From Opitutus sp. GAS368 (GTDB lineage: Bacteria; Verrucomicrobiota; Verrucomicrobiia; Opitutales; Opitutaceae), in the NCBI GenBank assembly GCA_945861645.1, contig CAMAVZ010000033.1:1-16521 (forward strand): a stretch of 16,521 nt of DNA, written 5' to 3'. The notes below the pieces were generated by a model, which saw only the letters and a list, made by a program, of their open reading frames with translations, did no database searches and was not told where the DNA came from. Every line of letters starts with the position of its first letter. The stretch's first letter is position 1. Position numbers and translations under genes: made by a program. This document shows positions 1 to 16,521 of the stretch, piece after piece.

Positions 1-10
1 GAATGCCGGG

Positions 11-46
11 TTGACTTTACCTTGCGCGCACACTCCTTCGTTTATC
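11..46 (+). promoter_or_regulatory. Possible sigma70-type promoter for the efflux locus
   Basis: TTGACT at 11-16 is a 5/6 match to -35 and lies about 30 nt before the GTG at 47. There is no convincing -10 at 17-bp spacing (TCCTTC). Confidence 0.25.
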
Positions 47-451
47 GTGCAACGTCTGCAACGTATCATCGCTTTTGTCCTGTTTGCCCTGTGGCTGCCG
101 GCGACGCTGCACAGCGATTTGGAGGCCGCCGAAATCAATTATGTTTTCGGGGGGCACGATCACGCCTCGCTGGCGCGCCAGCACTCTGATTGTGCTCACG
201 ACCGCGCTGACGACGAGGTCCCGCACTCGACCGACGGCGTGAGCTATCGCCATGATTCCCAGAATCTCAAGGTGCCGCTGCCGGCCTTCGCTTTTCTCTA
301 CCCCGTCGGGGTCATCCCTCTTTTTGCGCCCATCGATCTGCCCGCAAAATTTATAGCTAAAACGGGGGCCGCCCCGCCCGAAGTGGCCCGCACTTGGCAC
401 TTCCTCCGCCGCGCCGCGCCTCCGCCGCGCGCGCCCTCGCTCGTAGTTTAA
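47..451 (+). CDS. Small His-rich leader protein upstream of the czcCA-like operon (CzcI/DUF2946-like architecture; candidate ribosome-arrest uORF)
   Basis: The in-frame GTG at 47 gives MQRLQRIIAFVLFALWLPATLHS, a basic then hydrophobic signal/TM segment. It is followed by a His/Cys/Asp-rich stretch (HDHASLARQHSDCAHD...PH...RH) and a Pro-rich C-terminus WHFLRRAAPPPRAPSLVV, with TAA at 449-451. The track start (TTG at 11) is less likely. Confidence 0.75.
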   Translation: MQRLQRIIAFVLFALWLPATLHSDLEAAEINYVFGGHDHASLARQHSDCAHDRADDEVPHSTDGVSYRHDSQNLKVPLPAFAFLYPVGVIPLFAPIDLPAKFIAKTGAAPPEVARTWHFLRRAAPPPRAPSLVV

Positions 452-541
452 CGCCCGAACCCCTCCGCGGGTTCGCCGTTATCTCCCCGTCTCCGGCGCG
501 TTCCTGCGTCGTTAGCCGGCTTCTAGTGCGTCCCAAACGCA
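450..541 (+). promoter_or_regulatory. Structured intergenic leader between the uORF and the TolC gene
   Basis: CGAACCC (456-462) pairs with GGGTTCG (469-475), flanked by AACG (450-453)/CGTT (477-480). Also CCGGC (493-497)/GCCGG (515-519) and TGCGT (527-531)/ACGCA (537-541). No U-tract follows, so this is not a classical intrinsic terminator. Confidence 0.4.
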
Positions 542-570
542 AGTACTCACCCACTGATTTTCTCCTTCCC

Positions 571-1884
571 ATGCACCCACGACTCACCTCCCGCCGTTCT
601 TCTGCCCCGGCACTCCTATTGCTCCTCTCAATCGCATTCGTTTGCCCCGCTCCATCGCGGGCCGCCGACCCGACGGTCAAACTCAACGCGCTCATCAGCG
701 AAGTGACGTCGCGTCACCCCGAACTCGCCTTCTACGAAGCTGAAATTGCCGCCGCCAAGGCCGGTGCCCGTAGCGCCGCCACGTGGGCCGACCCTGAACT
801 GTCCCTGTCCGCCGGTCACAAACGTGTCCGCGATTTCTCCGGCGCCCTGGCCGGTGAAGGCACGGCGTGGTCCGTCTCACTTACGCAGACCTTCGAGTGG
901 CCCGGTCGCCTCGCTATCCGCAAAGCGCTCGCCAACGGCCAGATTGCCCTCGCCGAACTGGGCCTCGCTCGTTTTCGCAACGCCCTCGAATCGCGCGCCC
1001 GCACGCTCGCCTATAGCTTGCACGCCGCCCACACCCGCGCCGCCACCGTGCGTGAAGTTGCCGACCGTTTCACCGCGCTCAAGGAAACATTCCTCGCCCG
1101 CGAACCCGCCGGCCTCACTTCGCTCCTTGAAACCCGCGTGATCGAAGCCGCTGAACTTTCCCTCCAACGCCGCGCCGCTGAGGCCGAACTCGCCCTCCAC
1201 GCTGCGCTCCTCGAACTCAACCAACTTCGTGGCGCTGCTATCGACGCTCCGCTCGTCCTCGCTGCGCCCGCCCTCACGTTTGGCGATGCTCCTGCCCCCG
1301 ACGCCCTCCTCACCGCCGCCCGCGAAAACAATTTTGATTTTCGTCAGAAACGCGCCGAGTTGGAACAACAAGGCTTCGCCGTCAGTCTGGCGCAAAATGA
1401 ACGCCGCCCTGTGATCAGCGTCAGTCCGTTCTTCTCCCAGGACAAAGCGGACACCCGCGAATCGGTCATCGGCCTCGGTCTCTCTATTCCGCTTGCCGTC
1501 TCCGGTCGCGCCCGCTCCACGGTTGATGTGGCCGAAGCGCGCCGCCGCCAAGCCGAGACCGCTGCGCTCGTCGCCCAGCGGGAGCTTGAGCGCGACGTGC
1601 TCACTTCCGCCCATGTGTTCGCCACCAAAATCGCCGAGATTCGTCGCTGGGCCCCCGACACCACCGGTAAATTCCGCGATGCCGCTGCGCTGGCCGACCG
1701 CCACTACCGCCTCGGGGCTGTGCCCATCGCCACTTACGTTGCGCTCCAGACGAGCTACCTCGACGCCATCGAAGCCCTGCTCGCCACCCAGCAAGAAGCG
1801 CTCGCCGCCGGCCTGCGCCTTCGCCAGCTCACCGGCCTCGATTTCACCGCGGTCTCCCTCGTCAACGCGACGCCCGCGCCATGA
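571..1884 (+). CDS. czcC: TolC-family outer membrane efflux protein (CzcC-like)
   Basis: ATG at 571 gives a signal peptide (MHPRLTSRRSSAPALLLLLSIAFVCPAPSRA). The body is Ala/Leu/Glu-rich and helical with OEP-repeat signatures (HPEL, DPELSL, LTQTFEWPGR, GLSIPL, YRLG). It has an ATGA overlap with the RND gene. Confidence 0.9.
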   Translation: MHPRLTSRRSSAPALLLLLSIAFVCPAPSRAADPTVKLNALISEVTSRHPELAFYEAEIAAAKAGARSAATWADPELSLSAGHKRVRDFSGALAGEGTAWSVSLTQTFEWPGRLAIRKALANGQIALAELGLARFRNALESRARTLAYSLHAAHTRAATVREVADRFTALKETFLAREPAGLTSLLETRVIEAAELSLQRRAAEAELALHAALLELNQLRGAAIDAPLVLAAPALTFGDAPAPDALLTAARENNFDFRQKRAELEQQGFAVSLAQNERRPVISVSPFFSQDKADTRESVIGLGLSIPLAVSGRARSTVDVAEARRRQAETAALVAQRELERDVLTSAHVFATKIAEIRRWAPDTTGKFRDAAALADRHYRLGAVPIATYVALQTSYLDAIEALLATQQEALAAGLRLRQLTGLDFTAVSLVNATPAP

Positions 1885-4800
1885 TTGACCGCATCCTCGA
1901 ATTTTCCCTGCGTCAGCGCGCCGTCGTCGCGCTCTTTGCGGTCGCTCTGCTCGGCGCCGGCCTCTGGTCCGCGCTGCATCTGCCGATCGACGCCGTGCCC
2001 GACATCACCGGCGTGCAGGTGCAGATCAACACGGAGGTCGCCGCCCTCGCCGCCGAAGAATCCGAAAAGCTCGTCACCCAGCCGCTCGAACTCGAACTCG
2101 CCGGCCTGCCCGGGGTCGAAGAGATGCGCTCGATCACGAAGTTCGGCCTCTCGCAAATCACGCTGCAATTCAAAGACAACGCCGACATCTACCGCGCGCG
2201 CCAGCTCGTCACCGAGCGCTTGCAAGGCGCGCTCGAACTCCTGCCCCCCGGTGTCCTCCCGAAACTCGCACCCATCAGCACGGGCCTTGGCGAGATTTTC
2301 TACTACAGCGTGAACTATCGTGCTGAAGCGAAGCAGAAACCCGCGACCGAAATTGAACAGCTTATCGTCTTGAGCGAACTCCAGGAATACGTCATCAAGC
2401 CGCTCCTCCGCACCGTCCCCGGCATCGCTGAGATCAACGGCACCGGCGGCTACCAGAAGCAATACGTCATCCAGCCGAAGCCCGCGGCGCTCGTCGAACG
2501 CAACCTCACCTTCAGCGAACTCGCGGCGCTCGTCACGCAGAACGTCGAGAACGCTGGCGGCGGCATCGTCAACCGCGGCGGCCAGCAGCTCACGATTCGC
2601 GCCGTCAGTCGCGTACAGACGGTCGAGGACATCGCGAATCTTCCCGTGAAATTCGGCGCGGGCGCGCAGCCGATTCTCCTCAAAGACGTGGCCGAGGTTA
2701 AGCTCGGCACCAAATTCCGCACCGGTGCCGCCACGCTCGACGGCCACGAAACCGTCATCGGTACCGTCATGATGCTCGCCGGCGAAAACAGCCGCGAGGT
2801 CGCGCTCCGCGTCAAGGCCCGCCTCGCCGAAATCCAGACCAAACTTCCCGCGGGCGTGGAAATTCAAACTCAATACGATCGCTCCTTCCTCATCGACCGC
2901 ACCATCGGCACCGTCGAAAAAAATCTCGTCGAAGGCGCCATCCTGGTTGTCATCGTGCTCCTGCTGCTGCTCGGCAATTGGCGGGCCGCCCTCATCATCG
3001 CGTGTGTGATCCCGCTTTCGTTTCTCTTTGCCCTCACCGGCATGAGATACTGGGGCATCTCTGGTAACCTCATGAGTCTCGGCGCCGTCGACTTCGGGCT
3101 CATTATCGACGGCGCGGTCGTCATTGTCGAAAATATCGTGCGCCAGCTCGGCGTGCGCCAGCACAAGCTCGGCCGTCCGCTCACCGCCGAGGAGCGTTCG
3201 CAGACCGTCCTCGCCGCCAGCAAACAGATTGGCCGCCCGATGTTCTTCGGCGTCCTCATCATCGCCGTTGTTTACCTTCCGATCCTCGCGCTCACCGGCA
3301 TCGAGGGGAAAATGTTTCATCCCATGGCGCTCACTGTGATGCTCGCCCTCGGCGGTGCCCTGGTCCTCGCGCTCACGCTCATACCCGCCCTCTGCGCGTG
3401 GCTGCTCCGCGGCAAAATCTCCGAAGATGACAACGTCATCATCCGCTGCGCGAAAAGTCTCTACGCCCCCACGCTCCACGTCGCGCTTCGCCTGCGCTGG
3501 TTGGTCGTCACCGCCGCCATCGCGCTCTTCGCCGGCTCGCTCTGGGTCTTCACCCACCTCGGCGCCGAATTCGTGCCGAAGCTCGACGAAGGGTCCATCA
3601 CCGCGATGCTCTACAAGCCCGTCGGCATGAGCCTGGAGGAATCCCTCCGCACCGACATCGAGGTCGAGAACCGCCTGCGCGCTGATTTTCCCGAACTCAC
3701 CCGCATCTTCTCCCGCATCGGCACGAGCGCCATCGCCTCCGATCCCATGCCGCCTAACGAAAGCGACGTTTACCTCTTCTACAAACCGCTTGCCGAATGG
3801 CCGAAGACCGCCGGCCGCCCCACCACCAAGGCCGAACTCTGTGTGCAGATCGAAGCCGCCTTGAAGAAAATCAATCCCGACTACGATCTGCTCTTCGCCC
3901 AGCCCATCGAAATGCGTTTCAACGAAATGCTCGAAGGCACCAAGGCCGAACTCGCCGTAAAAATCTTCGGTCCCGACTACGACGTCCTCGAACCGCTCGC
4001 CCAACAGGTCAAGGCCATCCTTGAAAAGACGCCGGGCGTTGCCCAGGTCGAATACGAGACCGACGGCCGCACCCCGCAGCTCCAGCTGCGCGTGAAGCGC
4101 GACGTGCTTCGCCGCCACAATCTCCAGGCCGCCGAGGTCAACCACGCCGTCAGCGCCGCGCTCGCCGGCGAGATCGTCGGCAGCATCGTCGAGGGCAACC
4201 GCCGCCACGACATCGTTGTCCGTATGCCCGAGGAACTCCGCGCCGATGACGCTGAGATAAAAAAACTCCCGCTCCGCGTCGGCGAGCACGGCCTGCTCCC
4301 GTTTGGCGCTGCCGTTGATTTCTCCACGCTGAAGACCGTTGAGCCCATCCAGCGCGACGGCGGTCAACGCCGCGCCGCGCTCATGGTCAACCTCGCCGTC
4401 CGCGACATCGAGGGCTACGTCCGCGCCGCCGAGAAAACCATCGCCGCCGAGGTGAAGTTCCCCGAGGGCTACATCGTCGAGTTCGGTGGGCAGTTCCAAA
4501 ATCTCCAGGAAGCCCGCGCCCGCCTCGCCGTCGTCGTCCCCTCGGCTCTCGCGCTCATCTTCGTGCTCATCTTTCTCGCCTTCGGCTCGGTGCGGCAGGC
4601 GCTGCTCGTTTATACCGGCATCCCGCTTGCCGTCACCGGCGGCGTGGCCGCTCTCTGGCTGCGCGCCATGCCCTTTAGTATCCCCGCCGCCATTGGCTTT
4701 ATCGCGCTGACCGGCGTCGCCGTGCTGAACGGCGTCGTCCTCGTCAGCTACTTCAATCAGCTCCGCGAGGCAGGCCGCACCCTGTACGACTCCGTCATTG

Positions 4801-5030
4801 AAGGCGCGCTCACCCGTCTCCGCCCTGTACTCATGACGGCTGCTGTTGCCAGTCTGGGCTTCGTCCCGATGGCGCTCGCCACGGGTGCCGGCGCCGAGGT
4901 GCAGCGGCCCCTCGCGACTGTCGTGATCGGCGGCATCATCAGTTCCACCCTCCTTACCCTCGGCGTGCTGCCTGTCCTCTACGCGTGGTTCGAAAAGGAA
5001 AAACCTGCCGACAACGCCGCCCAATCATAA
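1881..5030 (+). CDS. czcA: CusA/CzcA-family heavy-metal efflux RND permease (CzcA-like, probably divalent cations)
   Basis: 1049 aa. Motifs: LPIDAVPDIT, APISTGLGEI, TM4 GAVDFGLIIDGAVVIVENI, GIEGKMFHPMA, DPMPPNESD, GFIALTGVAVLNGVVLV, RLRPVLMTA, GAEVQRPLATVVIGG. Confidence 0.95.
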   Translation: MIDRILEFSLRQRAVVALFAVALLGAGLWSALHLPIDAVPDITGVQVQINTEVAALAAEESEKLVTQPLELELAGLPGVEEMRSITKFGLSQITLQFKDNADIYRARQLVTERLQGALELLPPGVLPKLAPISTGLGEIFYYSVNYRAEAKQKPATEIEQLIVLSELQEYVIKPLLRTVPGIAEINGTGGYQKQYVIQPKPAALVERNLTFSELAALVTQNVENAGGGIVNRGGQQLTIRAVSRVQTVEDIANLPVKFGAGAQPILLKDVAEVKLGTKFRTGAATLDGHETVIGTVMMLAGENSREVALRVKARLAEIQTKLPAGVEIQTQYDRSFLIDRTIGTVEKNLVEGAILVVIVLLLLLGNWRAALIIACVIPLSFLFALTGMRYWGISGNLMSLGAVDFGLIIDGAVVIVENIVRQLGVRQHKLGRPLTAEERSQTVLAASKQIGRPMFFGVLIIAVVYLPILALTGIEGKMFHPMALTVMLALGGALVLALTLIPALCAWLLRGKISEDDNVIIRCAKSLYAPTLHVALRLRWLVVTAAIALFAGSLWVFTHLGAEFVPKLDEGSITAMLYKPVGMSLEESLRTDIEVENRLRADFPELTRIFSRIGTSAIASDPMPPNESDVYLFYKPLAEWPKTAGRPTTKAELCVQIEAALKKINPDYDLLFAQPIEMRFNEMLEGTKAELAVKIFGPDYDVLEPLAQQVKAILEKTPGVAQVEYETDGRTPQLQLRVKRDVLRRHNLQAAEVNHAVSAALAGEIVGSIVEGNRRHDIVVRMPEELRADDAEIKKLPLRVGEHGLLPFGAAVDFSTLKTVEPIQRDGGQRRAALMVNLAVRDIEGYVRAAEKTIAAEVKFPEGYIVEFGGQFQNLQEARARLAVVVPSALALIFVLIFLAFGSVRQALLVYTGIPLAVTGGVAALWLRAMPFSIPAAIGFIALTGVAVLNGVVLVSYFNQLREAGRTLYDSVIEGALTRLRPVLMTAAVASLGFVPMALATGAGAEVQRPLATVVIGGIISSTLLTLGVLPVLYAWFEKEKPADNAAQS

Positions 5031-5210
5031 AACGCCTGCTGCTCATCCGCGCGCCGCTGGCGCTCGGCGAGTTGCTCGTTTTGCGACTAGATTGGCCCCT
5101 GTCGCTAGCCACGGAAGAATCTCCGCCCTGCGACTGCCCCAGCCGGAAAAACGCCGCTTAGGCGGGGACTTTACTTGCTCGGGAGCGGTGGACGAACTAG
5201 CGGTTGCGTA

Positions 5211-6494
5211 ATGCTGTTACCCATTGGTCCCGATGAGAAAAATCCTGCAGTGGTGATTCTCGTGGTCGAGAATCAGGCGGATGTGCGCAACAAAATCGTC
5301 ACCGACCTTGCCGGCCAATGGTCCCTGCGTCTGGCGGCGACGGCCGCGGAAGCGGAAATCGTCCTTGAGCAGGAGCCGGTGCAGCTGGTGCTGCTGGGCT
5401 TGCCCATGGGGAGTATTGAAGGGGGGCGCGTTCTGCAGAGCGTGAAAATGATCGACGAGCATATCGAAATTGTCGTGCTGGCCGCTTTTGAGGCTAAGGA
5501 ATCGGCGCGGCAGGCCATCCGCCGAGGCGCTTGCGATTATATTAGCAAGACCGCAGAGCCTAATATTCTTCGTGCAGCAGTCGCGCGGGCGGTACGGTTG
5601 CGCGATCTGTTTGATCGCGAAGCGAGCAATCATGCGCGGCTCTCCAATCTGACGCAGCAGCTCAACGACACCGTGATTCGTGGGGAAATTGCGCGTAATA
5701 ATAATCTCGGTTACGCGGGGGTCTTGCACGACATCGTCAATCCCTTGACGGTTGCCAGTGGATTTCTGGAGGCGATGCAAAAAACCATGGCGAATCAAAC
5801 GACGCTTACGGCGGAAATGCTGGAGCCGATGAAGCGTGAACTAGCGCTGATATCTAAGCAGATTTTTCTCTGCTGTAGTATCACCTCCCGCTACATGCGG
5901 ATATTGCGGCACCAGTATGACCAAGCGGGCGAGTGCTCAGTGAATCGGACGCTCAATGATCTGCAGGTGATCGTGGCGCATCATCGTGAGCTGAAGCCTA
6001 ACCCGCTGGAAATTTTAGAGCTGAAGGAAAACCACACCGTTTTAATTGGCTCCACGGATCTCCTGCCGGCTTTGCTCAACTTGACGGTCAACGCCGTGCA
6101 AAGCTCGGCGGCGGCTGAGCCGGTGGTCGTTTCGGCGGAGCCCATTCTGCTGCCGCCGGATCCCGCTACGTTACAGGATGGTCCGCAGGATATTTATTGG
6201 GGTCGCGCCACCTTCAATGCTTCGCCGCCGACGGTGGCGATCCGAGTGATTGATCGGGGGCGGGGGATGCCTGCTAATATTTTAGCCCAAATCTTTGAGC
6301 CGCATTTTTCGACCAAAGGAGAGAAAGGTAATGGGCTCGGCCTGCCCATCGTCGCGCGACTCGTGGAGGTGCATCACGCCCTCATGCACGTCCACACGGA
6401 GGTCGGCGTTGGCACGACGGTGACGCTCTACCTGCCGGCGCGCGTGCTGTCGCGGAGCGATTCCATGCAGCCCTTTGCGGTTCGGCCGGTCTAG
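5211..6494 (+). CDS. Soluble hybrid histidine kinase with N-terminal (pseudo-)receiver domain
   Basis: Receiver-like N-terminus (ILVVEN...LVLLGLPM...AIRRGACDYISK). H-box LHDIVNPLT, N-box LLNLTVNAVQ, G1 DRGRGM, F-box FEPHFSTK, G2 GNGLGL. No TM segments. The start is uncertain (ATG at 5211 or a slightly later GTG). Confidence 0.9.
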   Translation: MLLPIGPDEKNPAVVILVVENQADVRNKIVTDLAGQWSLRLAATAAEAEIVLEQEPVQLVLLGLPMGSIEGGRVLQSVKMIDEHIEIVVLAAFEAKESARQAIRRGACDYISKTAEPNILRAAVARAVRLRDLFDREASNHARLSNLTQQLNDTVIRGEIARNNNLGYAGVLHDIVNPLTVASGFLEAMQKTMANQTTLTAEMLEPMKRELALISKQIFLCCSITSRYMRILRHQYDQAGECSVNRTLNDLQVIVAHHRELKPNPLEILELKENHTVLIGSTDLLPALLNLTVNAVQSSAAAEPVVVSAEPILLPPDPATLQDGPQDIYWGRATFNASPPTVAIRVIDRGRGMPANILAQIFEPHFSTKGEKGNGLGLPIVARLVEVHHALMHVHTEVGVGTTVTLYLPARVLSRSDSMQPFAVRPV

Positions 6495-6674
6495 CCCGAT
6501 AGATTTAAGGGATGCCGATGGTGCGCGATCGGTCTGTGCTAAGCCTATTTTCGAGGAGATAAAAACATCGATGGGTGGCTCATAATTACGGCCGCGCGCT
6601 ATTTCGTTGAAACGTTAGTTAGGCGCGGTGGACCTGAGCTTGTCGGGCTTCGAAAAATTACTCAGTTTAAATTG

Positions 6675-6950
6675 ATGCCGGCCAAGCGAGCTTTTGTTTA
6701 CATTCTGCGGTGTGCTGATCGTACCTTTTATATCGGCACGGCCAAGGATGTGCCGCTGCGGTTGGCGGTGCATAACGCGGGGAAGGGAGCGAAATATACG
6801 CGGCCGCGTTTGCCGGTGCGGGTAGTTTGGCAGGAGGGACCGCTGAGTTTGACGCGTGCGCTGCAACGCGAATATCAGCTCAAGCAATTGACGCGGCCCA
6901 AGAAACAGGCGCTCATTCGGGGCCGACTCAAAATTCCGCGCCCGCGCTGA
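6675..6950 (+). CDS. Small standalone GIY-YIG nuclease family protein (YhbQ/UPF0213-like)
   Basis: FVYILRCADRTFYIG...RLAVHNAGKGAKYTRPRLPV...ALQREYQLKQLTRPKKQALI. ATG at 6675. Confidence 0.92.
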   Translation: MPAKRAFVYILRCADRTFYIGTAKDVPLRLAVHNAGKGAKYTRPRLPVRVVWQEGPLSLTRALQREYQLKQLTRPKKQALIRGRLKIPRPR

Positions 6951-6958
6951 TTTTCCTG

Positions 6959-7708
6959 ATGCTGCTCTTCCATAAAATTTTACCCCTGTTTTTTCTGCCG
7001 GTGGGTATCGTCCTGCTCCTGCTGTTGTTCGCCTGGTGGACCCAGCGGCGCTGGCCGGTGGGCGTGGCCTGCTTGCTCCTCTACGCGGGCAGTACGCCCT
7101 ATGTGGGTCATCGGCTCATCGGTTGGTTGGAGTCGCGTTATCCCGCCGTAGCCGTTGTCGACGTAGAATCAGCTGATGCCGTCGTGGTGCTCGGGGGTAT
7201 TCTGGGCGCGCCGGTTGCTTTGGGTTTTACGCCCAACTGGACTGAGACCGTCGAGCGTTTCGAAGCCGGCGTCGCCCTGGTTCAATCGGGGAAGGCGCGG
7301 CGGCTAGTGTTTACCGGGGCCCGAATTAAGTGGGAGGGCCGTGCGACTACGGAGGGCGAGGAGCTGCGGCAACTCGCACGGGTACGTGGCGTGGCGGCGG
7401 AAAAAATTTTAGTGACGCGCGAGATCGATAATACCGCTACGGAAGCCATCGCCGTGGCTGAGCTGATGCAGTCGCAGGGTTGGCGCCGGATTATTTTGGT
7501 GACCACGGGCTGGCACATGCCGCGCGCTGCTCATTTATTTGCTCGGGCGGGAGTTAATTGCCTGATTTTTCCGGTCGATTTCCGTTCTGATCGGAATCGG
7601 CTAGTGACCGTCATGGATTTTGTGCCAAAGGCGGAAGCTTGGCAATTAACCGAGACCGCCCTGCGCGAGTGCTACGGTTATGCGTTCTATGTTGTGACCG
7701 GCCGGTGA
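6959..7708 (+). CDS. YdcF/DUF218 family membrane protein (ElyC/SanA-like)
   Basis: ATG at 6959. Two N-terminal TM helices, LESRYP, VVVLGG, LVFTG, NTATEA, ILVTTGWHMPRA and C-terminal ALRECYG. Confidence 0.9.
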   Translation: MLLFHKILPLFFLPVGIVLLLLLFAWWTQRRWPVGVACLLLYAGSTPYVGHRLIGWLESRYPAVAVVDVESADAVVVLGGILGAPVALGFTPNWTETVERFEAGVALVQSGKARRLVFTGARIKWEGRATTEGEELRQLARVRGVAAEKILVTREIDNTATEAIAVAELMQSQGWRRIILVTTGWHMPRAAHLFARAGVNCLIFPVDFRSDRNRLVTVMDFVPKAEAWQLTETALRECYGYAFYVVTGR

Positions 7709-7713
7709 CGCTC

Positions 7714-8325
7714 TCAGGCGGTCGGCGGCTGGGTTTTCAGGTAGTCGGCATAATCGGCTGGAGCATCCAGATCATGGACAACGGTCAGCGCTACGGTGGC
7801 CACCTCAGGAGCGTAGTCGCGCAAGAGTTGGCTCGCCCCTGCTTCGCCTTGGAGGGCGGCGAGGGCGGCAAAGTATTTTTTGGCGAAAAATACCGGTGGT
7901 CGTCGGATCGTCCCGTAAGCGGAAGCCACGATGGGTTGGCCGGTGCGGCGATGCGTTTCGATTAATGCCGTGATGTGGTCAGCCGAAAGATTAGGCTCAT
8001 CCGCTAGGGCGATGACGACCCCGGTTGACGCGGGTGAGCATGTGGCGAGCGCGGCTATGCCAGTGCGCAGCGATGAACCCATACCCTCAGCCCAACCCGC
8101 GTGTTCGACGATTTCGACGGGCAGTCCGTCAAGACACGGACGAATCACCGCGGCCTGCGCTCCGAGAATTACGATGATCGGCGTCACCGGCGCCGTTAGG
8201 CTTTTTTCGACGAGGTAACGCAGCAAAGGCTGCCCCTGCACGGCGAGCAATTGTTTGGGCCGCCCCATGCGAGTGGCCGCCCCCGCCGCGAGTAATATAA
8301 GAGCGCAGGCCGGCGGCTTAACCAT
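7714..8325 (-). CDS. mocA: Molybdenum cofactor cytidylyltransferase (MocA-like nucleotidyltransferase)
   Basis: ATG at 8325 overlaps the xdhC stop. Motifs: LLAAGAATRMGRPKQLL, WAEGMGSSL, LADEP, PPVFF, LQGEAGA, DLDAPADY. It lies next to xdhC. Confidence 0.8.
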   Translation of the reverse strand: MVKPPACALILLAAGAATRMGRPKQLLAVQGQPLLRYLVEKSLTAPVTPIIVILGAQAAVIRPCLDGLPVEIVEHAGWAEGMGSSLRTGIAALATCSPASTGVVIALADEPNLSADHITALIETHRRTGQPIVASAYGTIRRPPVFFAKKYFAALAALQGEAGASQLLRDYAPEVATVALTVVHDLDAPADYADYLKTQPPTA

Positions 8326-9307
8326 GAATGGGCTGAGCGCGATCGCGCAGATGAATGGGTGAGCGGCCTGATAATCGACACTGCATCTCCGCCACAATAG
8401 CTAGGGCAACCGTCTCGGGCGTCGAGCCCCCGAGGTCGAGGCCGACGGGAGCATGCAAACGCGCCAGCATGGTGGCGTCGGGAGAAAATCCTTCCGCGCG
8501 CAGTTGCGTCAGTAGCCGATCGGTTCGCTGGCGGGGTCCGAGGACCCCAAGATAGGCCAGCGACTGCGGCAGGAGGCGACGGAGGAGATTTAAATCTTCC
8601 GTATAGCGATGGGTCATCACGACGGCAAAAAGCGCCCGCGTGGTGGGGTCCGGCTCCGCAATTTTTTCGGCGGGAGTAATCATTATTCTATCCGCGGCGG
8701 GGAAGCGCGCCGCGGTGGCATACGCGGCCCGCGCATCAGTTACTGTGACGTGCCAGCCCAGTTCTTTAGCGAGTCGGACCAGGGGGCGGGCATCATCGCC
8801 GGCGCCGAAAAGGAGCAAGGCGGGCGCGGCGTTAATTATTTCCTGAAAACTATCGGGCGCAGGACGGTTCCCGTTGGATGCAAGGGTGGTGCCCAAAGCG
8901 CTGGTGCCCTCGTAGGTCGTGCGGAGGGTGGTGGGGTGCCCCGCGCGCAAATTTTCGGTCAGGACTTTGATCCACTCCGGCCGAATGATCGGCACCGGCT
9001 CGATCATGATATGGACGATGCCTTGGCAGCCCAGGCCCACGCCCCACACGAGGTCATTTTCGGATGTGGTATTGTAGACGGCGGTTTCTGCTTGGCCGGT
9101 AGCGAGGACGCGCTCCGCCCGCAGGATGATGTCTTCCTCAAGGCAGCCGCCGCTGATGGAGCCAATGGGTGAATGGCCTTTAAGCACTAAAAGTCGCGCG
9201 CCTGGTCGGCGGTAAGAAGAGCCAGTAACACGCACCAACGTCGCCAACGCCGCCGGGGCCGGCGGGGCCCCAGCGAGCGCGGCCAAGATTTTTTCGATTT
9301 CTGCCAT
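8318..9307 (-). CDS. xdhC: XdhC/CoxI family molybdoenzyme maturation factor
   Basis: N-domain GSSYRRPGARLLV, GSISGGCLE, GVGLGCQG. C-domain FGAGDDA, VVMTH, YLGVLGP, APVGLDLGGSTPETVALAIVAE. Confidence 0.93.
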   Translation of the reverse strand: MAEIEKILAALAGAPPAPAALATLVRVTGSSYRRPGARLLVLKGHSPIGSISGGCLEEDIILRAERVLATGQAETAVYNTTSENDLVWGVGLGCQGIVHIMIEPVPIIRPEWIKVLTENLRAGHPTTLRTTYEGTSALGTTLASNGNRPAPDSFQEIINAAPALLLFGAGDDARPLVRLAKELGWHVTVTDARAAYATAARFPAADRIMITPAEKIAEPDPTTRALFAVVMTHRYTEDLNLLRRLLPQSLAYLGVLGPRQRTDRLLTQLRAEGFSPDATMLARLHAPVGLDLGGSTPETVALAIVAEMQCRLSGRSPIHLRDRAQPIHG

Positions 9308-9314
9308 GGCGCAG

Positions 9315-10805
9315 TTACGATTGATCGGGCGCCGCCTTCAGAGCGTAGATTTCCTGTCCACCCTCCGCCCGCAAGAGCCGGGCGAGCGCCGCGCTTCTGA
9401 GGCCGTGCCGACACGAGAGTGCGACGGGGCCGGTCGCTACAAATTCGCGCAGCGCGGCTAAGTCGTGAGCGGGGATCGCATGAAAATTGCTGCGACCAAT
9501 CGATGGCGCCGTTTCACCGGGCTCGAGGAGGAAAATTATCTTCGACGTGGGTCCGAGCGCACTGAGGTGGGCGTCGGTTATCCAGATCGTTTCGCGCTCG
9601 CTGTGCTGCACGGTGGCGGGCGTGGGCAACTGCTCGAGCCGACGACACACCGGACAATCGGGCCGAGCCAGGCGTTCGATGGTGAGCGCCGAGCCGTCGA
9701 GTAAGTTAACCAAACGCGTTTGTTGGGCCGCGGTGCCGGCGAGGCCAAGGATTAATTTTAAAGTTTCGGCGGCTTGCATCACTCCGAGAACGCCCACGGC
9801 GGGTCCAAAGACCGGCCCGCCGGCGCAATTCTCTTGAGGCTCGAGCTCGGTCGCGGTGCGACCAGCCCACAAGCAGTGCAAGCATCCCCCGGTTCCGCGT
9901 TGGAAAATATCGAGCGTGCCTTCAAAGCGATGGACGGCGGCCGAGATGAGTGGGCGGCCGAGTGCTTGGCAGGCATCGTGCAAAATAAAGCGTGAGGTGA
10001 AATTATCGGTGCAATCGAGGATGACGTCGTGGCCTGCGACTAACGCGCGGGCATTCGTTGCGGTGAGATCGCCTTGGTGTGTTTTGATTTCAATCGCGGG
10101 GTGATGGAGTCGCAGTCGCGCGGCGGCGGCGAGCACCTTGGGGGCACCGACCTCGGCCAGCGTAAATAATAGCTGACGATGAAGATTAGAAAATTCGACG
10201 TGACCGCCGTCGACCAAGGTGAGCTGGCCGATCCCGGCGCCGGTGAGATAAAGGGCGGCGGGACAACCCAGTCCGCCGACGCCGACTACCAGTACTCGCG
10301 CAGCGGCGAGTTTGGCCTGACCGGCTGCACCGACTTCTGGGAGCGAAGCTTGGCGCGTATGGTAAGCTATGAGCGTCGGATTCGTTGCGGCCTCAGTCGC
10401 GCAGTTCACCCATTCGGCGGCGCCATCGGGGTGATGCTCTTTTTTCCATACTGGCAAGCGGCGCTTAATTTCCTCGATGACATGGCGACAAGCGGCAAAC
10501 CCTGCGGCCCGATGTGCGGAAGCGACGCCAATCCAGATGGCTACTTCGCCGATGCGCAGCGTGCCGGTGCGGTGCACGCAATGTACGTGGGTGCCCGTGT
10601 AAAGCTGCTCCGTCTCGGCGATGATAGCTTCACCCTCAGTTTGGGCGAGCGCGTCAAACGCTTCGTACTCTAGGTGCGTGACGGGTTGGCCGAGATGATG
10701 GTTGCGCACGCGCCCTTCAAAAATCACCGCCGCGCCGGCCTCAGGCGCGGCGCGGCACCTCGCTCGCTCGGCGGGATCAATCGGGGTGGCGGTCAGTTCA
10801 AACAT
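9315..10805 (-). CDS. moaE-moeB: Fusion protein: MoaE (molybdopterin synthase large subunit) + MoeB/ThiF adenylyltransferase + degenerate rhodanese domain
   Basis: aa ~1-135 are MoaE (FEGRVRN, LEYEAF, HRTGTL, SAHR, IKRRLPVWKKE). aa ~145-390 are MoeB (GVGGLG, SNLHRQ, DCTDN, zinc sites CLHC and CPVC). The C-terminus has the rhodanese loop CRHGLRS (9393-9413). It is one uninterrupted frame. Confidence 0.9.
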   Translation of the reverse strand: MFELTATPIDPAERARCRAAPEAGAAVIFEGRVRNHHLGQPVTHLEYEAFDALAQTEGEAIIAETEQLYTGTHVHCVHRTGTLRIGEVAIWIGVASAHRAAGFAACRHVIEEIKRRLPVWKKEHHPDGAAEWVNCATEAATNPTLIAYHTRQASLPEVGAAGQAKLAAARVLVVGVGGLGCPAALYLTGAGIGQLTLVDGGHVEFSNLHRQLLFTLAEVGAPKVLAAAARLRLHHPAIEIKTHQGDLTATNARALVAGHDVILDCTDNFTSRFILHDACQALGRPLISAAVHRFEGTLDIFQRGTGGCLHCLWAGRTATELEPQENCAGGPVFGPAVGVLGVMQAAETLKLILGLAGTAAQQTRLVNLLDGSALTIERLARPDCPVCRRLEQLPTPATVQHSERETIWITDAHLSALGPTSKIIFLLEPGETAPSIGRSNFHAIPAHDLAALREFVATGPVALSCRHGLRSAALARLLRAEGGQEIYALKAAPDQS

Positions 10806-10807
10806 AA

Positions 10808-11062
10808 CTAGCCCCCGGCGACGGGTGGAATAAATACTATGCGATCGCCAGTGGTGAGAGGAGTATGCATCTCCCCGTAACGCTCATTGACGGCGACCCG
10901 CAGCAGATTGGCGGGAAAGGTGAGGGCGTGGGATTTCTGTAATTCTGCGTAAAGTTCTGCGGAGGTGCGGGCGGTGGTCGCTAGCTTGAGCGTCGAGCAA
11001 CCCGCTTGTTCGCGGAGCACGGCGAAGAAACGAATCTGCAACTGGAGGGGAGTGTCGGCCAC
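10808..11062 (-). CDS. moaD: Molybdopterin synthase sulfur carrier subunit
   Basis: 84 aa. IRFFAVLREQAG, VAVN and C-terminal FIPPVAGG (Gly-Gly). GTG start. Confidence 0.93.
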   Translation of the reverse strand: MADTPLQLQIRFFAVLREQAGCSTLKLATTARTSAELYAELQKSHALTFPANLLRVAVNERYGEMHTPLTTGDRIVFIPPVAGG

Positions 11063-11071
11063 GCGGAGAAA

Positions 11072-12052
11072 TTAGCCGCCAATTTCCGACATCCCGCGCG
11101 CCGAAGGAATCAGGTGTTGCGCGAGGCCGTGGCCCCACGGTTTTTCGTGCACTGCTTGGCGAATGCAGGTGGCGATGGCGTCGTCATTTTCGCCGCCGCG
11201 GAGCAGATGGAGTAAATTAATTTCGTTATCCCGTAATAGGCACAGCCGCAGCACCCCGTCGGCAGTGAGCCGCATGCGATTGCAGCCGGCGCAAAAAGGA
11301 GCGGAGACGGGGCTGATGAAGCCTAGGGCACCCTGACCCCCAGGGAGACGATAGAGGCGGGCCTCGCCATCGAGTTGGCCGCCATTCACGAGTTCTAGCG
11401 GACCGAAGGCGGTCGTGAGGACCGTAAGCAGTTCAGCTTCGCTCACCATGCCGCGTTTCTGAAAATCTGAATTATTGCCGAACGGCATCTGCTCAATGAA
11501 GCGGACCTGCCAAGGATTGTTTAAAGTGAGGCGAGCGAGTGCGACGACATCCTCGCCGTCATTCACCCCGCGACAGACGACCGCATTGAGTTTAATGCGC
11601 AGGCCGGCGCGAGCCGCGGCGGCAAGGCCCGCGTGCACATCCCGGAGATTGCCCCAGCGCGTGAGTTGGCGAAATTTTTCTTCATCGAGGCTATCGATCG
11701 AGACGTTGGCAGTTTGCAGGCCAGCATCGGCCAGCGGTTGAGCCAGTTGGTCAAGAAGCACGCCATTGGTGGTGAGGCCAACGGTCGTGATGCCGGGCGT
11801 ATTGACGGCATGGCGCACCAGCTCAACCAAGCCGGGGCGCAGCGTGGGCTCGCCCCCGGTGAAACGAATTTTCCGAAAACCCAAGGTGCCGAATAAGGTG
11901 ATGAGGCGCCGGAGTTCAGCGTCGCTCAATAATTCACCCCGCGGCCGGAAAGTCATATTCTCCGGCATGCAGTAAACGCAGCGCAGATTGCACGCATCGG
12001 TTAAAGAGATGCGGAGGTAGTCAATATCGCGGTGGTAGCTGTCGAGCGGCAT
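11072..12052 (-). CDS. moaA: GTP 3',8-cyclase (radical SAM)
   Basis: ATG at 12052 (MPLDSYHRDIDYLRISLTD). CxxxCxxC is CNLRCVYC. Also RFTGGEP, TTNG, RFIE, the C-terminal cluster FCAGCNRMRLTADG...CL and terminal MSEIGG. Confidence 0.97.
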   Translation of the reverse strand: MPLDSYHRDIDYLRISLTDACNLRCVYCMPENMTFRPRGELLSDAELRRLITLFGTLGFRKIRFTGGEPTLRPGLVELVRHAVNTPGITTVGLTTNGVLLDQLAQPLADAGLQTANVSIDSLDEEKFRQLTRWGNLRDVHAGLAAAARAGLRIKLNAVVCRGVNDGEDVVALARLTLNNPWQVRFIEQMPFGNNSDFQKRGMVSEAELLTVLTTAFGPLELVNGGQLDGEARLYRLPGGQGALGFISPVSAPFCAGCNRMRLTADGVLRLCLLRDNEINLLHLLRGGENDDAIATCIRQAVHEKPWGHGLAQHLIPSARGMSEIGG

Positions 12053-12089
12053 GTTGAGGGGAAGAGAATAGGTCTGGGCTGACCTCAAA

Positions 12090-13223
12090 TCAAATACGAA
12101 TCCCGCCAGCGCGCAGTCCATAAGTGACGACCACGCCCAGAGTAAGCCCGATGAGATAGCCTTGAGGCAGCCAAAGACAGCAGAGCGCCACACCGAGGGC
12201 TATGCTCATCGCCCGGCCCGAGCTGCGTAGGTCGCGCACCAGTAAGACGAGAACGGCCGCCTCTACTAATAGCACCGCGCCGAGAATGGCGGAGGGAAAA
12301 GCTTGAATAAGTCCCGTGAACGCCGCGCTAAAAAATAAACCCGCCACAACAAATAGCGCACCGTAAATCACGACCGCACCTCCCGTGCGCGCCCCCAGAG
12401 CATAATAACCAGCCAGGCCGCCACAGCCGTGACAAACGGGAATACCGCCTAACCAGGGGACGATTAAATTAAGACCGGCATACGTTAGGCCGATCGTGCG
12501 CAGGGTGAATGATCGACCAGGAAATAAATCGCGCACGGTTTGCTGCGTGGCGATGAGCGAATTTGAAAGCGAGAGTGGCAGTTGGGGTAACACCAGTAAC
12601 GTGAGCGCCGTGAGCCATTGATCCCATGGCCACGACTCCGCGTGCGGGAGAGTGAAGCCGATGCCCTGCGGAATCGCTGACCAATTGACCCGATAGATCA
12701 TCGCCCAAATGACGGCCGCGCCCATCACGAGCAAAGCCCCAGGCAGGCGATGGCTCTTGCGCCATAACGCGAGCGTTAAAATAGCCGCAAGGGCCGCCAC
12801 CCAGCTCCCCGTGCTGGCGTTTTGGGCGATTAATTTCGTCGCGACTCGCGCGAGCGAGAGCCCAAGCCCAACTTGCACGCCGCGCACCACACAGAGAGGA
12901 ATAATGCGACTGAGCCAGTCGAGTCCCCCGCTGGCCGAGAGCACGAGCATTAGCCCGCCAATCATCAGGCCGGCCATTTGGAGCAAAGCGCCGGAAGCTT
13001 GGCCCGCGATGACGACCACCGCCATGGCCTTGAGCGGTTGTACGGGCATGGGCAGGCCGTAGAGCAAACCAGTGAAAATTTGAGCGCAGCCAAAAGCGAT
13101 GAGCACCCCCGAACAATTGAGGCCAGTCGCGAGCAGGATCCCGACGATGATCGGGAGTGAAGTTCCGATATCGCCAAACGCCCCGGCCAATTCCCGCCGG
13201 TTAAATTGTAGGCGCGCTGTCAT
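12090..13223 (-). CDS. MOT1-family molybdate (sulfate/molybdate) transporter
   Basis: ATG at 13223. ELAGAFGDIGT, PMPVQPLKAM, PQLPLSLSNS and PVCHGCGGLAG..ALGARTGG match MOT1 signature motifs. Many TM helices. It is embedded among Moco genes. Confidence 0.85.
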   Translation of the reverse strand: MTARLQFNRRELAGAFGDIGTSLPIIVGILLATGLNCSGVLIAFGCAQIFTGLLYGLPMPVQPLKAMAVVVIAGQASGALLQMAGLMIGGLMLVLSASGGLDWLSRIIPLCVVRGVQVGLGLSLARVATKLIAQNASTGSWVAALAAILTLALWRKSHRLPGALLVMGAAVIWAMIYRVNWSAIPQGIGFTLPHAESWPWDQWLTALTLLVLPQLPLSLSNSLIATQQTVRDLFPGRSFTLRTIGLTYAGLNLIVPWLGGIPVCHGCGGLAGYYALGARTGGAVVIYGALFVVAGLFFSAAFTGLIQAFPSAILGAVLLVEAAVLVLLVRDLRSSGRAMSIALGVALCCLWLPQGYLIGLTLGVVVTYGLRAGGIRI

Positions 13224-13231
13224 GTAAGGAC

Positions 13232-13732
13232 TCAGGACGTCGGCCGCGTGAGTTGCGGCCGAAAGCCCGCGATGTGATCGAGGGCTTCGGCAATTGCCGG
13301 GGCTAATAAGGGGAGACATTCCGCGATCGCCGTGGGTCGACCGGGTAAATTAACAATCAGCGAACGTCCGCGCACGCCGGCGGTGGCGCGGGAGAGAATC
13401 GCAGTTTTCACTTTTTGATAATTCTGCATCCGCATAATTTCGCCAAAGCCTGGGAGCTCTTTTTCCAAGACCGCGTGCGTGGCCTCGGGGGTGATATCGC
13501 GCGGCGAAGGTCCGGTGCCGCCGGTCGTAAAAATGAGCGGGCAATGTTCGTCATCGGCCAAGCGACGCAAAGCCGCCTCCAAGAGGGCGCGATCGTCAGG
13601 CAAGAGTACGCGAATCCATTCCAGCGGCTCAGCAATAATGGTGGCCGCGATGCGCTCGATCTCTGGTCCGCTGGCATCAGCGTAAATGCCATTTGCCGCC
13701 CGATCGCTTAAAGTGACGCGCGCAATTTTCAT
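13232..13732 (-). CDS. mogA: Molybdopterin adenylyltransferase
   Basis: TLSDRA...YADASGP, PDD, TTGGTGPSPRDITPEAT, LPGFGEIMR, AILSR, NLPG. Confidence 0.93.
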   Translation of the reverse strand: MKIARVTLSDRAANGIYADASGPEIERIAATIIAEPLEWIRVLLPDDRALLEAALRRLADDEHCPLIFTTGGTGPSPRDITPEATHAVLEKELPGFGEIMRMQNYQKVKTAILSRATAGVRGRSLIVNLPGRPTAIAECLPLLAPAIAEALDHIAGFRPQLTRPTS

Positions 13733-14193
13733 GATTTAATTTTTTCGACGACATGAATGCCGTCGATCGACATGGCTTTATCCACGGCTTTGCACATGTC
13801 GTAAATAGTGAGAGCGGCGACAGACACCGCGGTCAGGGCTTCCATCTCAACGCCCGTTTGGCCGGTCGAGCGAATCGTTGCGCGGATGAGAATGCTCGTC
13901 GGCTCGACCGAAAATTCGAGTGAAGCGCCTGACAGGGCGAGTGGGTGGCAGAGAGGAATGAGCGTGCTGGTAGCTTTGGCCGCTTGTAGTCCCGCAATTT
14001 GGGCGACGGTGAGCACATCACCTTTGGGCAGGGCTTGAGCGCGCAGGAGGTCAATGGTGGCGGCGGCACAATGGAGTCGGCCTTCCGCCATCGCCGTGCG
14101 GTGGGAATCAGGTTTGGCGCTCACATCGACCATGCGGGCGTGGCCAGAGGCATCGAGATGGGAGAATGACGGTGAGCTGGGCGCGGTTTTCAT
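13729..14193 (-). CDS. moaC: Cyclic pyranopterin monophosphate synthase
   Basis: FSHLD..GHARMVDVSAK, KGDVL, LIPLCHP, TGVEMEALT, IYDMCKAVD. ATGA overlaps with both neighbours. Confidence 0.97.
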   Translation of the reverse strand: MKTAPSSPSFSHLDASGHARMVDVSAKPDSHRTAMAEGRLHCAAATIDLLRAQALPKGDVLTVAQIAGLQAAKATSTLIPLCHPLALSGASLEFSVEPTSILIRATIRSTGQTGVEMEALTAVSVAALTIYDMCKAVDKAMSIDGIHVVEKIKS

Positions 14194-15377
14194 GGAAAAA
14201 AAATAAAACTAACCGATTGGCCAATCTGTAAGTTGGTCGGCGGCGTGGGCACGGGCAAGAGCGCGTTCGCGCCGACGAGGCCACTGCTGTCGCCGGAGCT
14301 AGCGAGCGGCAGCGGCGTGAGTTCATAGTGACCATCCACGAGTTCAGCGCGGCAGGGCCAAAAAGTTTGACGAGAATCTACCGAAGGCAATCCGGCGATG
14401 GCCTGTAATCGTCCCTTGATTTGGGGCCGGGGTGTAGTCGTGCCGGTGGCGAGGTAGCGGAGGAGGGGGGCGAGAAACAATTGGAAAACCACCCAGTGCG
14501 AAACGGGATTGCCGGGTAAGGCAAAGGCGAGTTGCTCGCCGCGCGTGGCGAAAACGAGCGGTTTGCCTGGACGAAGGTTTAAGGCGTGGAAGTGGAGCGT
14601 GTAGCCCAGTGATTCCAGCAGGGGCCGCGCGATATCGTGATCGCCCACGCTGGCGCCACCGGAGATCAGCAAAATATCGTGAACCGGCAGAGCTTCCGCG
14701 ACTGCGCGCGCGGTGGTGAGATCATCGGTGACGCGGGCCTGACCCGCAAGTTCAGCGCCTGCCCCAGCCAGTAACGCGGCAATGAGGGTGGAGTTGCTAT
14801 CACGAATTTGGGCGCCGGTAGGAGTTTGGTCCGGGGCAACTAATTCGTTCCCCGTCACCAGATGAACGCAGCGCGGGATTCGCGTGACGCTTGGTTGCGT
14901 GCAACCGGCCCCAGCGAGCGCCGCTAATTCTGGTGGACCGAGGCGAGTGCCAGCGGCGACTAAAATAGCTCCGGCGCGACAATTTTCACCCCGCCGGCGA
15001 ATGTAGTGAGGACCAGGGGCTGAAGTTATCTGCACGATCTCGCCAGAGCGGGTGACTTCCTCCTGTTTAACCACGCAGTCAGCTCCACTCGGCACCGGCG
15101 CGCCCGTGAAGATGCGGACGCATTCGCCCGGTCCTACGCTGCCGGCGAAAGCGATTCCGGCCTGGCTCGCGCCGATTACGCGCAGCGGCACTGAGCGGCT
15201 ATTTTGCTGAAGCGCGTAGCCATCCATGGCGGCGGCGTCAAAAGGTGGCGCATCGGTCTCGGCGTAAATCGGCGTGCGCAGGGTGCGGCTGAGGGCCGCG
15301 CTCAGCGGTACATTAACCGCGGCCAACTGCTGCGCCTGCGTCAGGATAGTTTGCCAAGCTTGGTCAGGCGAAAACAT
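14190..15377 (-). CDS. moeA: Molybdopterin molybdotransferase
   Basis: PPFDAAAMDGYA, RIFTGAPVP.GAD.VV.QE, TGNEL, IRDSN, SGGASVGDHD, RPGKP, LPGNPVS. Confidence 0.95.
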   Translation of the reverse strand: MFSPDQAWQTILTQAQQLAAVNVPLSAALSRTLRTPIYAETDAPPFDAAAMDGYALQQNSRSVPLRVIGASQAGIAFAGSVGPGECVRIFTGAPVPSGADCVVKQEEVTRSGEIVQITSAPGPHYIRRRGENCRAGAILVAAGTRLGPPELAALAGAGCTQPSVTRIPRCVHLVTGNELVAPDQTPTGAQIRDSNSTLIAALLAGAGAELAGQARVTDDLTTARAVAEALPVHDILLISGGASVGDHDIARPLLESLGYTLHFHALNLRPGKPLVFATRGEQLAFALPGNPVSHWVVFQLFLAPLLRYLATGTTTPRPQIKGRLQAIAGLPSVDSRQTFWPCRAELVDGHYELTPLPLASSGDSSGLVGANALLPVPTPPTNLQIGQSVSFIFFP

Positions 15378-15389
15378 CGTAGTAGCTTT

Positions 15390-16520: not shown

Positions 16521-16521
16521 G

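Follow-up and report, generated by a model that had tools for sequence, protein, structure and literature searches.

The metal-sensing arrest leaders characterised so far, CruR and CutF, are described in the papers we consulted as copper-responsive and as ending in RAPP or PPP. CruR (Bp2923) of Bordetella pertussis, a DUF2946 (PF11162) protein, is encoded by a small exported uORF that heads a metal operon and targets a TonB importer. It has Cys ligands, a RAP motif three residues from its end and a long spacer, and the product is poorly structured. CutF of Rhodobacter capsulatus combines a signal, a ligand region and a Pro-rich end, and the model proposed for it is metal-induced stalling on PPP that frees a Shine-Dalgarno sequence (PMC9973294). 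Its end reads PEPEGPPPRL, which corrects an earlier note on the DNA described here, made from the sequence alone, that had given CutF a RAPP end.

In Ozturk et al. 2023 (PMC9973294), efflux outer membrane proteins (CusC/CzcC/SilC) are the commonest neighbours of the CutF-like set, His-only clusters occur beside Ni/Co genes, and CzcI is treated as a CutF-like protein before czcCBA. A CutF-like leader before czcC is therefore already in print as a concept. CzcI of Cupriavidus metallidurans (pMOL30) is a small exported His/Cys protein encoded right before czcC, with a conserved C-terminal motif; Zn induces czcICBA in the absence of CzcRS, and czcI2 is leaderless (PMC10127602). We also drew on PMC9426467, PMC12992588 and PMC9045368.

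We analysed a 16,521-nt stretch of Opitutus sp. GAS368 (contig CAMAVZ010000033.1, positions 1 to 16,521 of the forward strand), here called the window. It contains a uORF, the leader, ahead of heavy-metal pump genes, with the following features in window coordinates.

11..16, + strand: -35 box, sigma-70-type (TTGACT), 36 nt 5' of the leader GTG; the mRNA is predicted to be leaderless
33..38, + strand: candidate -10 element, T-rich and non-consensus, a weak assignment based on 118 distinct promoters that are enriched in T at +24 to +28 relative to the -35 box
47..451, + strand: leader ORF, 134 aa, of an unnamed Opitutaceae family; neither Pfam nor NCBIfam matches it at E<=1
50..127, + strand: hydrophobic helix at the N-terminus, a signal or membrane anchor, carrying the conserved LWLPATxH(C); helix 2-27 in the model, W16 invariant
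110..253, + strand: candidate ligand region from the alignment, His22-Cys23...Asp57-x-Cys59-x3-Glu63 in the family, often with CxxC; the window copy has Ser23, Pro59 and additional His/Asp
395..439, + strand: candidate arrest motif W-x-F-x-x-R-A-A-x3-R-A-P-S, from conservation; predicted P-site Pro130 (434-436) and A-site Ser131 (437-439)
450..480, + strand: hairpin 1, starting at the stop codon, with inner stem 456-475 and loop CUCCGC (CUGCGC in the family), from family counts, compensatory pairs and folds
493..519, + strand: hairpin 2, less conserved, from folding and family comparison; relatives often share the CUGCGC loop
545..570, + strand: C/U-rich, G-poor tract before the czcC start, mostly unpaired and with no Shine-Dalgarno sequence, from composition and folding
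571..1884, + strand: CzcC-like outer membrane factor (PF02321, E 1e-28)
1881..5030, + strand: CzcA/ZneA-like heavy-metal RND permease (TIGR00914; ZneA 625 bits vs CusA 524), with no adaptor gene between czcC and czcA

The leader runs from GTG47 to TAA451 and its C-terminal end is WHFLRRAAPPPRAPSLVV. RAPS occupies codons 128-131 (nt 428-439), and three more codons precede the stop. The AlphaFold model (pTM 0.27) has a helix at residues 2-27 and a disordered remainder, in keeping with the earlier note's description of a uORF with an N-terminal signal or membrane segment and a RAPS end. The protein has a single Cys (Cys49) and His at positions 22, 37, 39, 46, 51, 60 and 69. A gap of 119 nt separates it from czcC (OEP), which is followed by czcA.

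Like CruR, the leader is a small, presumably exported uORF at the head of a metal operon, with Cys ligands in the family, a RAP motif three residues from the end, a long spacer and a product predicted to be poorly structured; its target is an exporter. It differs further in a W-x-F-x-x-R-A-A element, in a conserved hairpin at the stop codon and in a RAP-x end that is never RAPP (0/150 and 0/122 in the two sets described below). As in the DUF2946/CruR arrangement, it stands first in a metal-homeostasis operon with a long spacer: an RND permease lies downstream in 132 of the 133 leaders having >=3.5 kb of downstream sequence, and the spacer to the next gene has a median of 111 nt in 135 loci. 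Membership of DUF2946 itself is not supported. PF11162 gave no hit for the window protein and weak matches below the cut-off in 4/124 relatives (best E 0.013); CxxC is absent from the window copy and the end is not RAPP.

The survey of Ozturk et al. selected proteins of <150 aa with an N-terminal signal, PP in the last 15 residues and a same-strand neighbour at <=1 kb. The window copy fits the size, PP and neighbour rules, with the signal judged from the hydrophobic N-terminal helix, and 34/150 family copies pass the PP rule. The full CutF-like list of PMC9973294 may thus contain some of the leaders; the 8,054 characters of its supplementary text available to us do not use the term Opitutaceae. 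Our search of the open literature found no publication on this leader family, its motif or its hairpin.

A family profile built from 23 homologues and run against 300 genomes of the host family, Opitutaceae, matched 162 of them, with 235 matches including the window and <=5 per genome. In a phylum-wide draw it matched 23/26 Opitutaceae genomes; the leader was not found in the 274 genomes from outside this family, with 14 candidates scored per genome. Named records with a leader are mostly Opitutaceae or Opitutae, some labelled just Verrucomicrobia; Oleiharenicola lentus is among the carriers. The full scan gave 1,372 leader clusters at 50% identity. These homologues, together with synonymous variation at every degenerate codon of the C-terminal motif, indicate that the uORF is genuine and exclude chance. 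No second member was found in the window's genome (84% complete).

Our locus sample comprised 160 loci, namely the 149 non-window matches listed and 11 from another homologue search, with 85 further matches left out; removal of 7 duplicates or loci without a hit left 154 distinct leaders in 153 loci. No Pfam or NCBIfam family fits the leader, and no Rfam family matches the leader or the spacer. The top hits by language-model features were DUF6769 (PF20558) and unnamed small proteins of Bacteroidota (score 0.96). These share 134-149 of 256 features with the leader, and 0/124 leader members match the PF20558 model at E<=1; we regard them as look-alikes rather than as shown relatives. On sequence grounds, we class the family as an unnamed variant of the CruR/CutF kind, for which control has so far been shown only for copper genes.

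Conservation along the leader is uneven. The mean frequency of the top residue is 0.80 at residues 12-30, 0.21 at 31-56, 0.33 at 64-116 and 0.75 at 117-131, which agrees with the earlier expectation of a conserved C-terminal motif after a divergent middle. The distance from Trp16 to the Arg of RAP is 98-120 aa. Of 155 sequences (154 plus the window), 150 fit the pattern W-x-F-x-x-R-[AT]-A-x3-R-A-P-x; of the other five, four nevertheless finish with RAPD or RAPG and the fifth has a frameshift. In the locus L194:1446-2259, the leader is frameshifted within the C-terminal motif, by assembly error or decay. Among the 150, the counts are W 148, F 147, R 150, A/T 147, A 150, R 140, A 148 and P 149. 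In place of the RAP Arg, 9 copies have Gly and 1 has His, which speaks against reading the motif as an arrest sequence. The motif ends 3-4 residues short of the stop. The PPP run, part of a RAAPPP stretch that the earlier note had singled out, is present in 3/150 leaders and is not a family determinant.

The residue after RAP (S 98, A 14, D 13, T 11, N 7, G 4, E 2, C 1 and Pro 0 of 150) is not the fixed Ser that the window copy had suggested. In ApcA, an actinobacterial arrest peptide whose gene lies upstream of yidC, mutagenesis showed that arrest is retained when the A-site residue is P, C, N, T, S, G, D or A and is abolished by larger residues (PMC7897499). The post-RAP residue falls within this tolerated set in 148/150 leaders. 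Among 122 cluster proteins at the 50% level, mostly <50% alike, 117 are ApcA-permissive, 3 have a stop codon there and none has Pro. The background for the permissive set is 50% of 132 RAPx sites in the window's genome and 34/122 at the next leader position; relatives are not independent, so we attach no p-value to this enrichment.

As far as the sources show, natural variants of the ApcA cluster include RAPS, RAPA, RAPT, RAPD and RAP* (PMC10987492), with no natural Pro at the A site, and ApdA/ApdP strictly require Pro there (PMC10987492, PMC7897499). The leader conforms to the ApcA rule and departs from that of ApdA/ApdP. ApcA arrest also depends on far-upstream residues (PMC7897499), a need that fits the conserved W, F and RAA of the leader motif. 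The likeness to ApcA, which extends to R-A-P, the tolerated non-proline A site and a presumed dependence on distal residues, is one of motif; the leader has another target, belongs to another phylum and carries a spacer with metal ligands. Its layout is that of RAPP-like arrest peptides, with an export signal, a spacer of >30 aa and a conserved C-terminal R-A-P-x. Most RAPP-like motifs in ordinary proteins cause no stalling, according to the same two papers (PMC10987492, PMC7897499), which, like the Pro requirement of ApdA/ApdP, counts against an arrest by the leader. By analogy with the toeprints of ApcA, ApdA and ApdP, the predicted stall register places Pro130 in the P site and Ser131 in the A site.

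Some copies end in RAP-stop or QAP-stop and one in HAPD (L264, L270, L266, L271, L179). These ends echo the R/Q/H variants and Pro-stop types of known arrest peptides.

Upstream of the leader, TTGAC is found 33-40 nt 5' of the start codon in 123/153 leaders, compared with 27/1105 long ORFs of the window's genome and 0/106 starts of downstream outer membrane factors. From this spacing, the leader transcript probably begins at or near the start codon and would be leaderless. A consensus promoter scan missed the leader promoter because of its non-canonical -10. The leader promoters (window 11-46) have a strong -35 box and no TAnnnT -10.

Downstream, a hairpin with loop C[UC][GC]CGC lies <=35 nt from the stop in 101/149 leaders and at 0/283 stops of downstream genes; the background is about 0.3% of 38-nt windows in the window's genome. 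In a loop-anchored test on 95 distinct sequences, 80-98% can form pairs 2-7, compensatory changes are seen, and the pairing exceeds all 500 shuffles as well as slid controls, where the shuffles ignore relatedness. Rfam holds no match for the hairpin. With stalling on Pro130, the ribosome would extend to about nt 449, the hairpin base, according to the 15-17 nt toeprint rule.

The hairpins themselves could be the regulator, as a protein-binding site or riboswitch, with the peptide secondary. Conservation extends to the loop sequence, which often recurs in the second hairpin, and codon choice at RAP is biased: in the window (431-436) and its relatives, GCT encodes 33% of the Ala and CCT 39% of the Pro, compared with 6% each in downstream genes and 12-14% elsewhere in the leader. 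Against this, the motif is conserved at the protein level with varying codons, and 48/149 copies lack the loop type. We consider a purely RNA-based regulator highly improbable.

A Shine-Dalgarno-like sequence was found in 0/109 spacers, and 6% of 614 genes in the genome use one. In 107 folded sequences, the accessibility of the czcC start is near-constant (0.58 free, 0.66 stalled, 0.64 terminating), with no sign of a translational switch. We rejected a Shine-Dalgarno switch of the CutF type, as the spacers lack the sequence and the start region is mostly unpaired; the leader differs from CutF here in a genome that hardly uses Shine-Dalgarno sequences, as it does in its rarity of PPP. With the CutF switch disfavoured in this way, Rho attenuation, as for CruR, is the likelier output. 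No intrinsic terminator was found in a scan. The tract before the downstream start has C at 0.40 and G at 0.13 in 109 loci, and window 547-624 contains 37 C vs 9 G; this bias extends into the downstream coding region, which weakens its support for a Rho site. The window's genome encodes Rho and EF-P. A second Rho-like gene (G000:C10:24322-25425) scores under the TIGR00767 cut-off.

Contigs from lake-sample RNA libraries cover the leader and pump genes, and in 2/4 runs examined (of 16 RNA runs listed) they bridge the leader to czcC. As contigs, they show presence rather than start sites, a drop after the leader or a single transcript, and stretches that they leave bare count neither way. They are compatible with constitutive coupling or tuning, in which the act of translating the leaderless ORF, together with the hairpin, would set basal pump transcription or stabilise a processed mRNA with no sensing at all. 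The lack of a predicted conformational switch also agrees with this. Such tuning would leave the conserved export helix and ligands unexplained, and we find it quite improbable.

A profile-recognised outer membrane factor starts <=700 nt downstream of 124/145 leaders. In five complete genomes with 13 heavy-metal permeases, the leader precedes 9/9 of the non-CusA type and 0/4 of the CusA type, and the four leaderless permeases are closer to the second, CusA-like pump of the window's genome. Conversely, 0/136 leader-linked permeases are closer to that pump than to the window's pump. In the three permease types tested, ZneA and CusA matches were far above those to drug pumps. The window pump scores above the TIGR00914 cut-off (1206 bits) and is closer to ZneA than to CusA, which bears out the earlier call of a CzcA-type exporter as the target. 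The sequences thus associate the leader with non-CusA metal pumps, whose substrates are predicted only; this association supports the guess that they are divalent metals.

RND helix-4 motifs are linked to metal class, and we take the DFG-type helix-4 motif of the target permease to be of the divalent-metal type. The label 'Cus-like' for eight pumps with an AIGIG motif was unsupported, as the one tested scored 767 with ZneA vs 740 with CusA. The second heavy-metal pump of the window's genome (G000:C2:62692-67671) is CusA-like (835 bits vs ZneA 508) and has an adaptor; directly upstream of it we saw neither a leader nor an outer membrane factor.

The window pump (571-5030) has no adaptor (MFP) gene, and an adaptor may be encoded elsewhere. 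Between czcC and czcA of 136 leader-headed pumps (L061-L218), 13 have nothing, 21 a lipoprotein of 130-165 aa, 34 a lipoprotein of 225-275 aa and 68 a longer adaptor. The 236-aa adaptor form matches the C-terminal part of CusB/ZneB alone, and its model has no long helical hairpin. To our knowledge, Borrelia BesA also lacks the adaptor hairpin.

Dedicated regulators are rare around the leaders. Near 153 loci, the ArsR proteins of the window's genome gave 1 hit and the OmpR-type ones 0, a count that short or distant regulators could escape. The 145 longest upstream ORFs include 1 DtxR-like and 1 LuxR regulator and 6 NicO-like proteins. The closest relative, with a leader 91% identical, has 7.9 kb of upstream sequence with tRNA-Gln and housekeeping genes and no evident regulator. 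Base 1 of the contig is also the first base of the window, with the DNA beyond out of view, and a missing regulator there is by itself uninformative; the earlier remark that none is adjacent largely holds across the loci but carries no weight for the window alone. Several leader operons (L209, L208:91-1500, L131, L081) have NicO-like genes beside them and, presumably, CobW-like GTPase and heavy-metal ATPase-like genes. Within the window, the gene after czcA (5175-6494) encodes a hybrid of receiver and kinase in which no sensor domain is evident, and the minus strand at 7714-15377 encodes XdhC and what we take to be a MobA-like gene and other molybdenum-cofactor genes.

Position alone would also suit a trans-acting, periplasmic or membrane-anchored accessory like CzcI that quenches the pump, with the C-terminal motif as the pump-binding site. 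CzcI shares the position and layout and is reported to quench CzcCBA (PMC10127602), and W-x-F-x-x-R could serve as an interaction motif. Yet the same motif precedes permeases that are just 30-60% alike and have different adaptors, and every operon has its own copy, with up to 4 leader-headed operons in one complete genome. A filter on the A-site residue and a hairpin fixed at the stop codon are not expected of a binding site. Homology to CzcI does not extend beyond the signal region (hhalign probability 42%); there is no significant profile match, and the PDRPQW end motif of CzcI is absent from the leader. We therefore consider a trans-acting accessory unlikely. Three different metal pump operons lie in tandem at G214:C1:6723433-6745352, each with its own leader.

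CzcI was also considered as a RAP-x leader in its own right. It contains RAPD, but among 37 aligned members (the query and 36 of 48 hits) RAPD occurs in 9 and PDRPQW is what is conserved, so this candidate was rejected. The CzcI family (L314:377-724 and P0173-P0221) keeps P-D-R-P-Q-W after a variable spacer, a candidate arrest motif of another kind. Of four proteobacterial czc loci checked, one has a CzcI-type ORF and three have none evident.

Alignment of the family revealed conserved His22 (121/124), Cys23 (122), Asp57 (113), Cys59 (115) and Glu63 (115). The additional His residues of the window copy (37, 39, 46, 51, 60 and 69) are not conserved, e.g. H37 in 37/124 and H46 in 12/124, and the His cluster proposed earlier is therefore no family trait. 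The earlier observation of no CxxC and a single Cys is right for the window and wrong for the family, in which CxxC occurs in 65/149 relatives and single-Cys leaders number 2/149. As judged from the alignment, the family is Cys-rich and the window copy an atypical, derived, Cys-poor member. It lacks both of the most conserved Cys (Ser23, Pro59), and its nearest relatives show stepwise Cys loss. In this lineage, Cys is replaced by His/Asp, and the motif, hairpin and promoter are kept. Pump classes showed no difference in the ligand counts of their leaders (median Cys 6-6.5, His 4; p 0.27 and 0.61), and a quick tree intermingles leaders of different classes, so metal specificity is unreadable from the leader.

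An arrest leader could also act in cis without sensing metal. It would then monitor export capacity or periplasmic disulfide status, with folding of a Cys23-Cys59 disulfide pulling the chain free; pump expression would track envelope or redox stress, an indirect effect of metals. The ligands with the strongest conservation are Cys23 and Cys59, leaders of different pump classes have the same ligand content, release by a disulfide has been proposed for CutF (bioRxiv 2025.02.05.636593), and the architecture has what the literature asks of Sec-monitoring peptides. But the target is always a metal pump and never of the CusA type, His22, Asp57 and Glu63 are conserved too, and the window lineage exchanged Cys for His/Asp and still has the motif, hairpin and promoter. 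We hold export or disulfide monitoring to be rather unlikely.

Our preferred reading is a leader that senses metal through its nascent chain. A leader acting in cis in some way is fairly likely, and it probably turns the pump genes on by arresting the ribosome that translates it. Whether it is specifically a cis-acting arrest leader that senses a divalent metal, with the metal prolonging the stall and read-through following, we rate as evenly balanced. In this model, a sigma-70 promoter would start the transcript at the leader start codon, as the -35 spacing suggests, and the N-terminal helix would export the nascent chain. The Cys/His/Asp ligands, about 100 residues before the arrest site, would then lie outside the cell membrane. 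The ribosome, aided by the upstream W-x-F-x-x-R-A-A, would stall once the R-A-P proline occupies the P site, and the non-proline A-site residue would make the arrest moderate and releasable, as for ApcA. Without metal, export force would free the stall, translation would stop at the hairpin, and Rho would terminate within or after the 119-nt spacer. A divalent metal bound to the exported part would lengthen the stall, and transcription would continue into czcC-czcA. This combines the polarity of CutF with an output of the CruR type, and we infer the polarity solely from the target being an exporter.

The fullest form of this reading is an arrest leader for non-copper divalent metals, whose transcript is leaderless, whose long arrest sequence W-x-F-x-x-R-A-A-x3-R-A-P is tuned by a non-Pro A site, and whose conserved hairpin meets the leading edge of the ribosome. 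It would replace two-component or ArsR control of all non-CusA pumps across a Shine-Dalgarno-free family, and in the window lineage the ligands would have shifted from Cys to His/Asp. We propose this whole combination tentatively and rate it as somewhat less likely than not. Screens that require RAPP, RGPP or PP miss most of the leader family. If the reading is true, the A-site rule of ApcA predicts natural sequences of an unrelated family, and nascent-peptide sensing would extend to exporters of the zinc/cobalt/nickel type. It would also give a testable account of efflux operons, such as czcICBA, in which metal induces expression with no dedicated regulator present, with the reservation that the end motif of CzcI differs.
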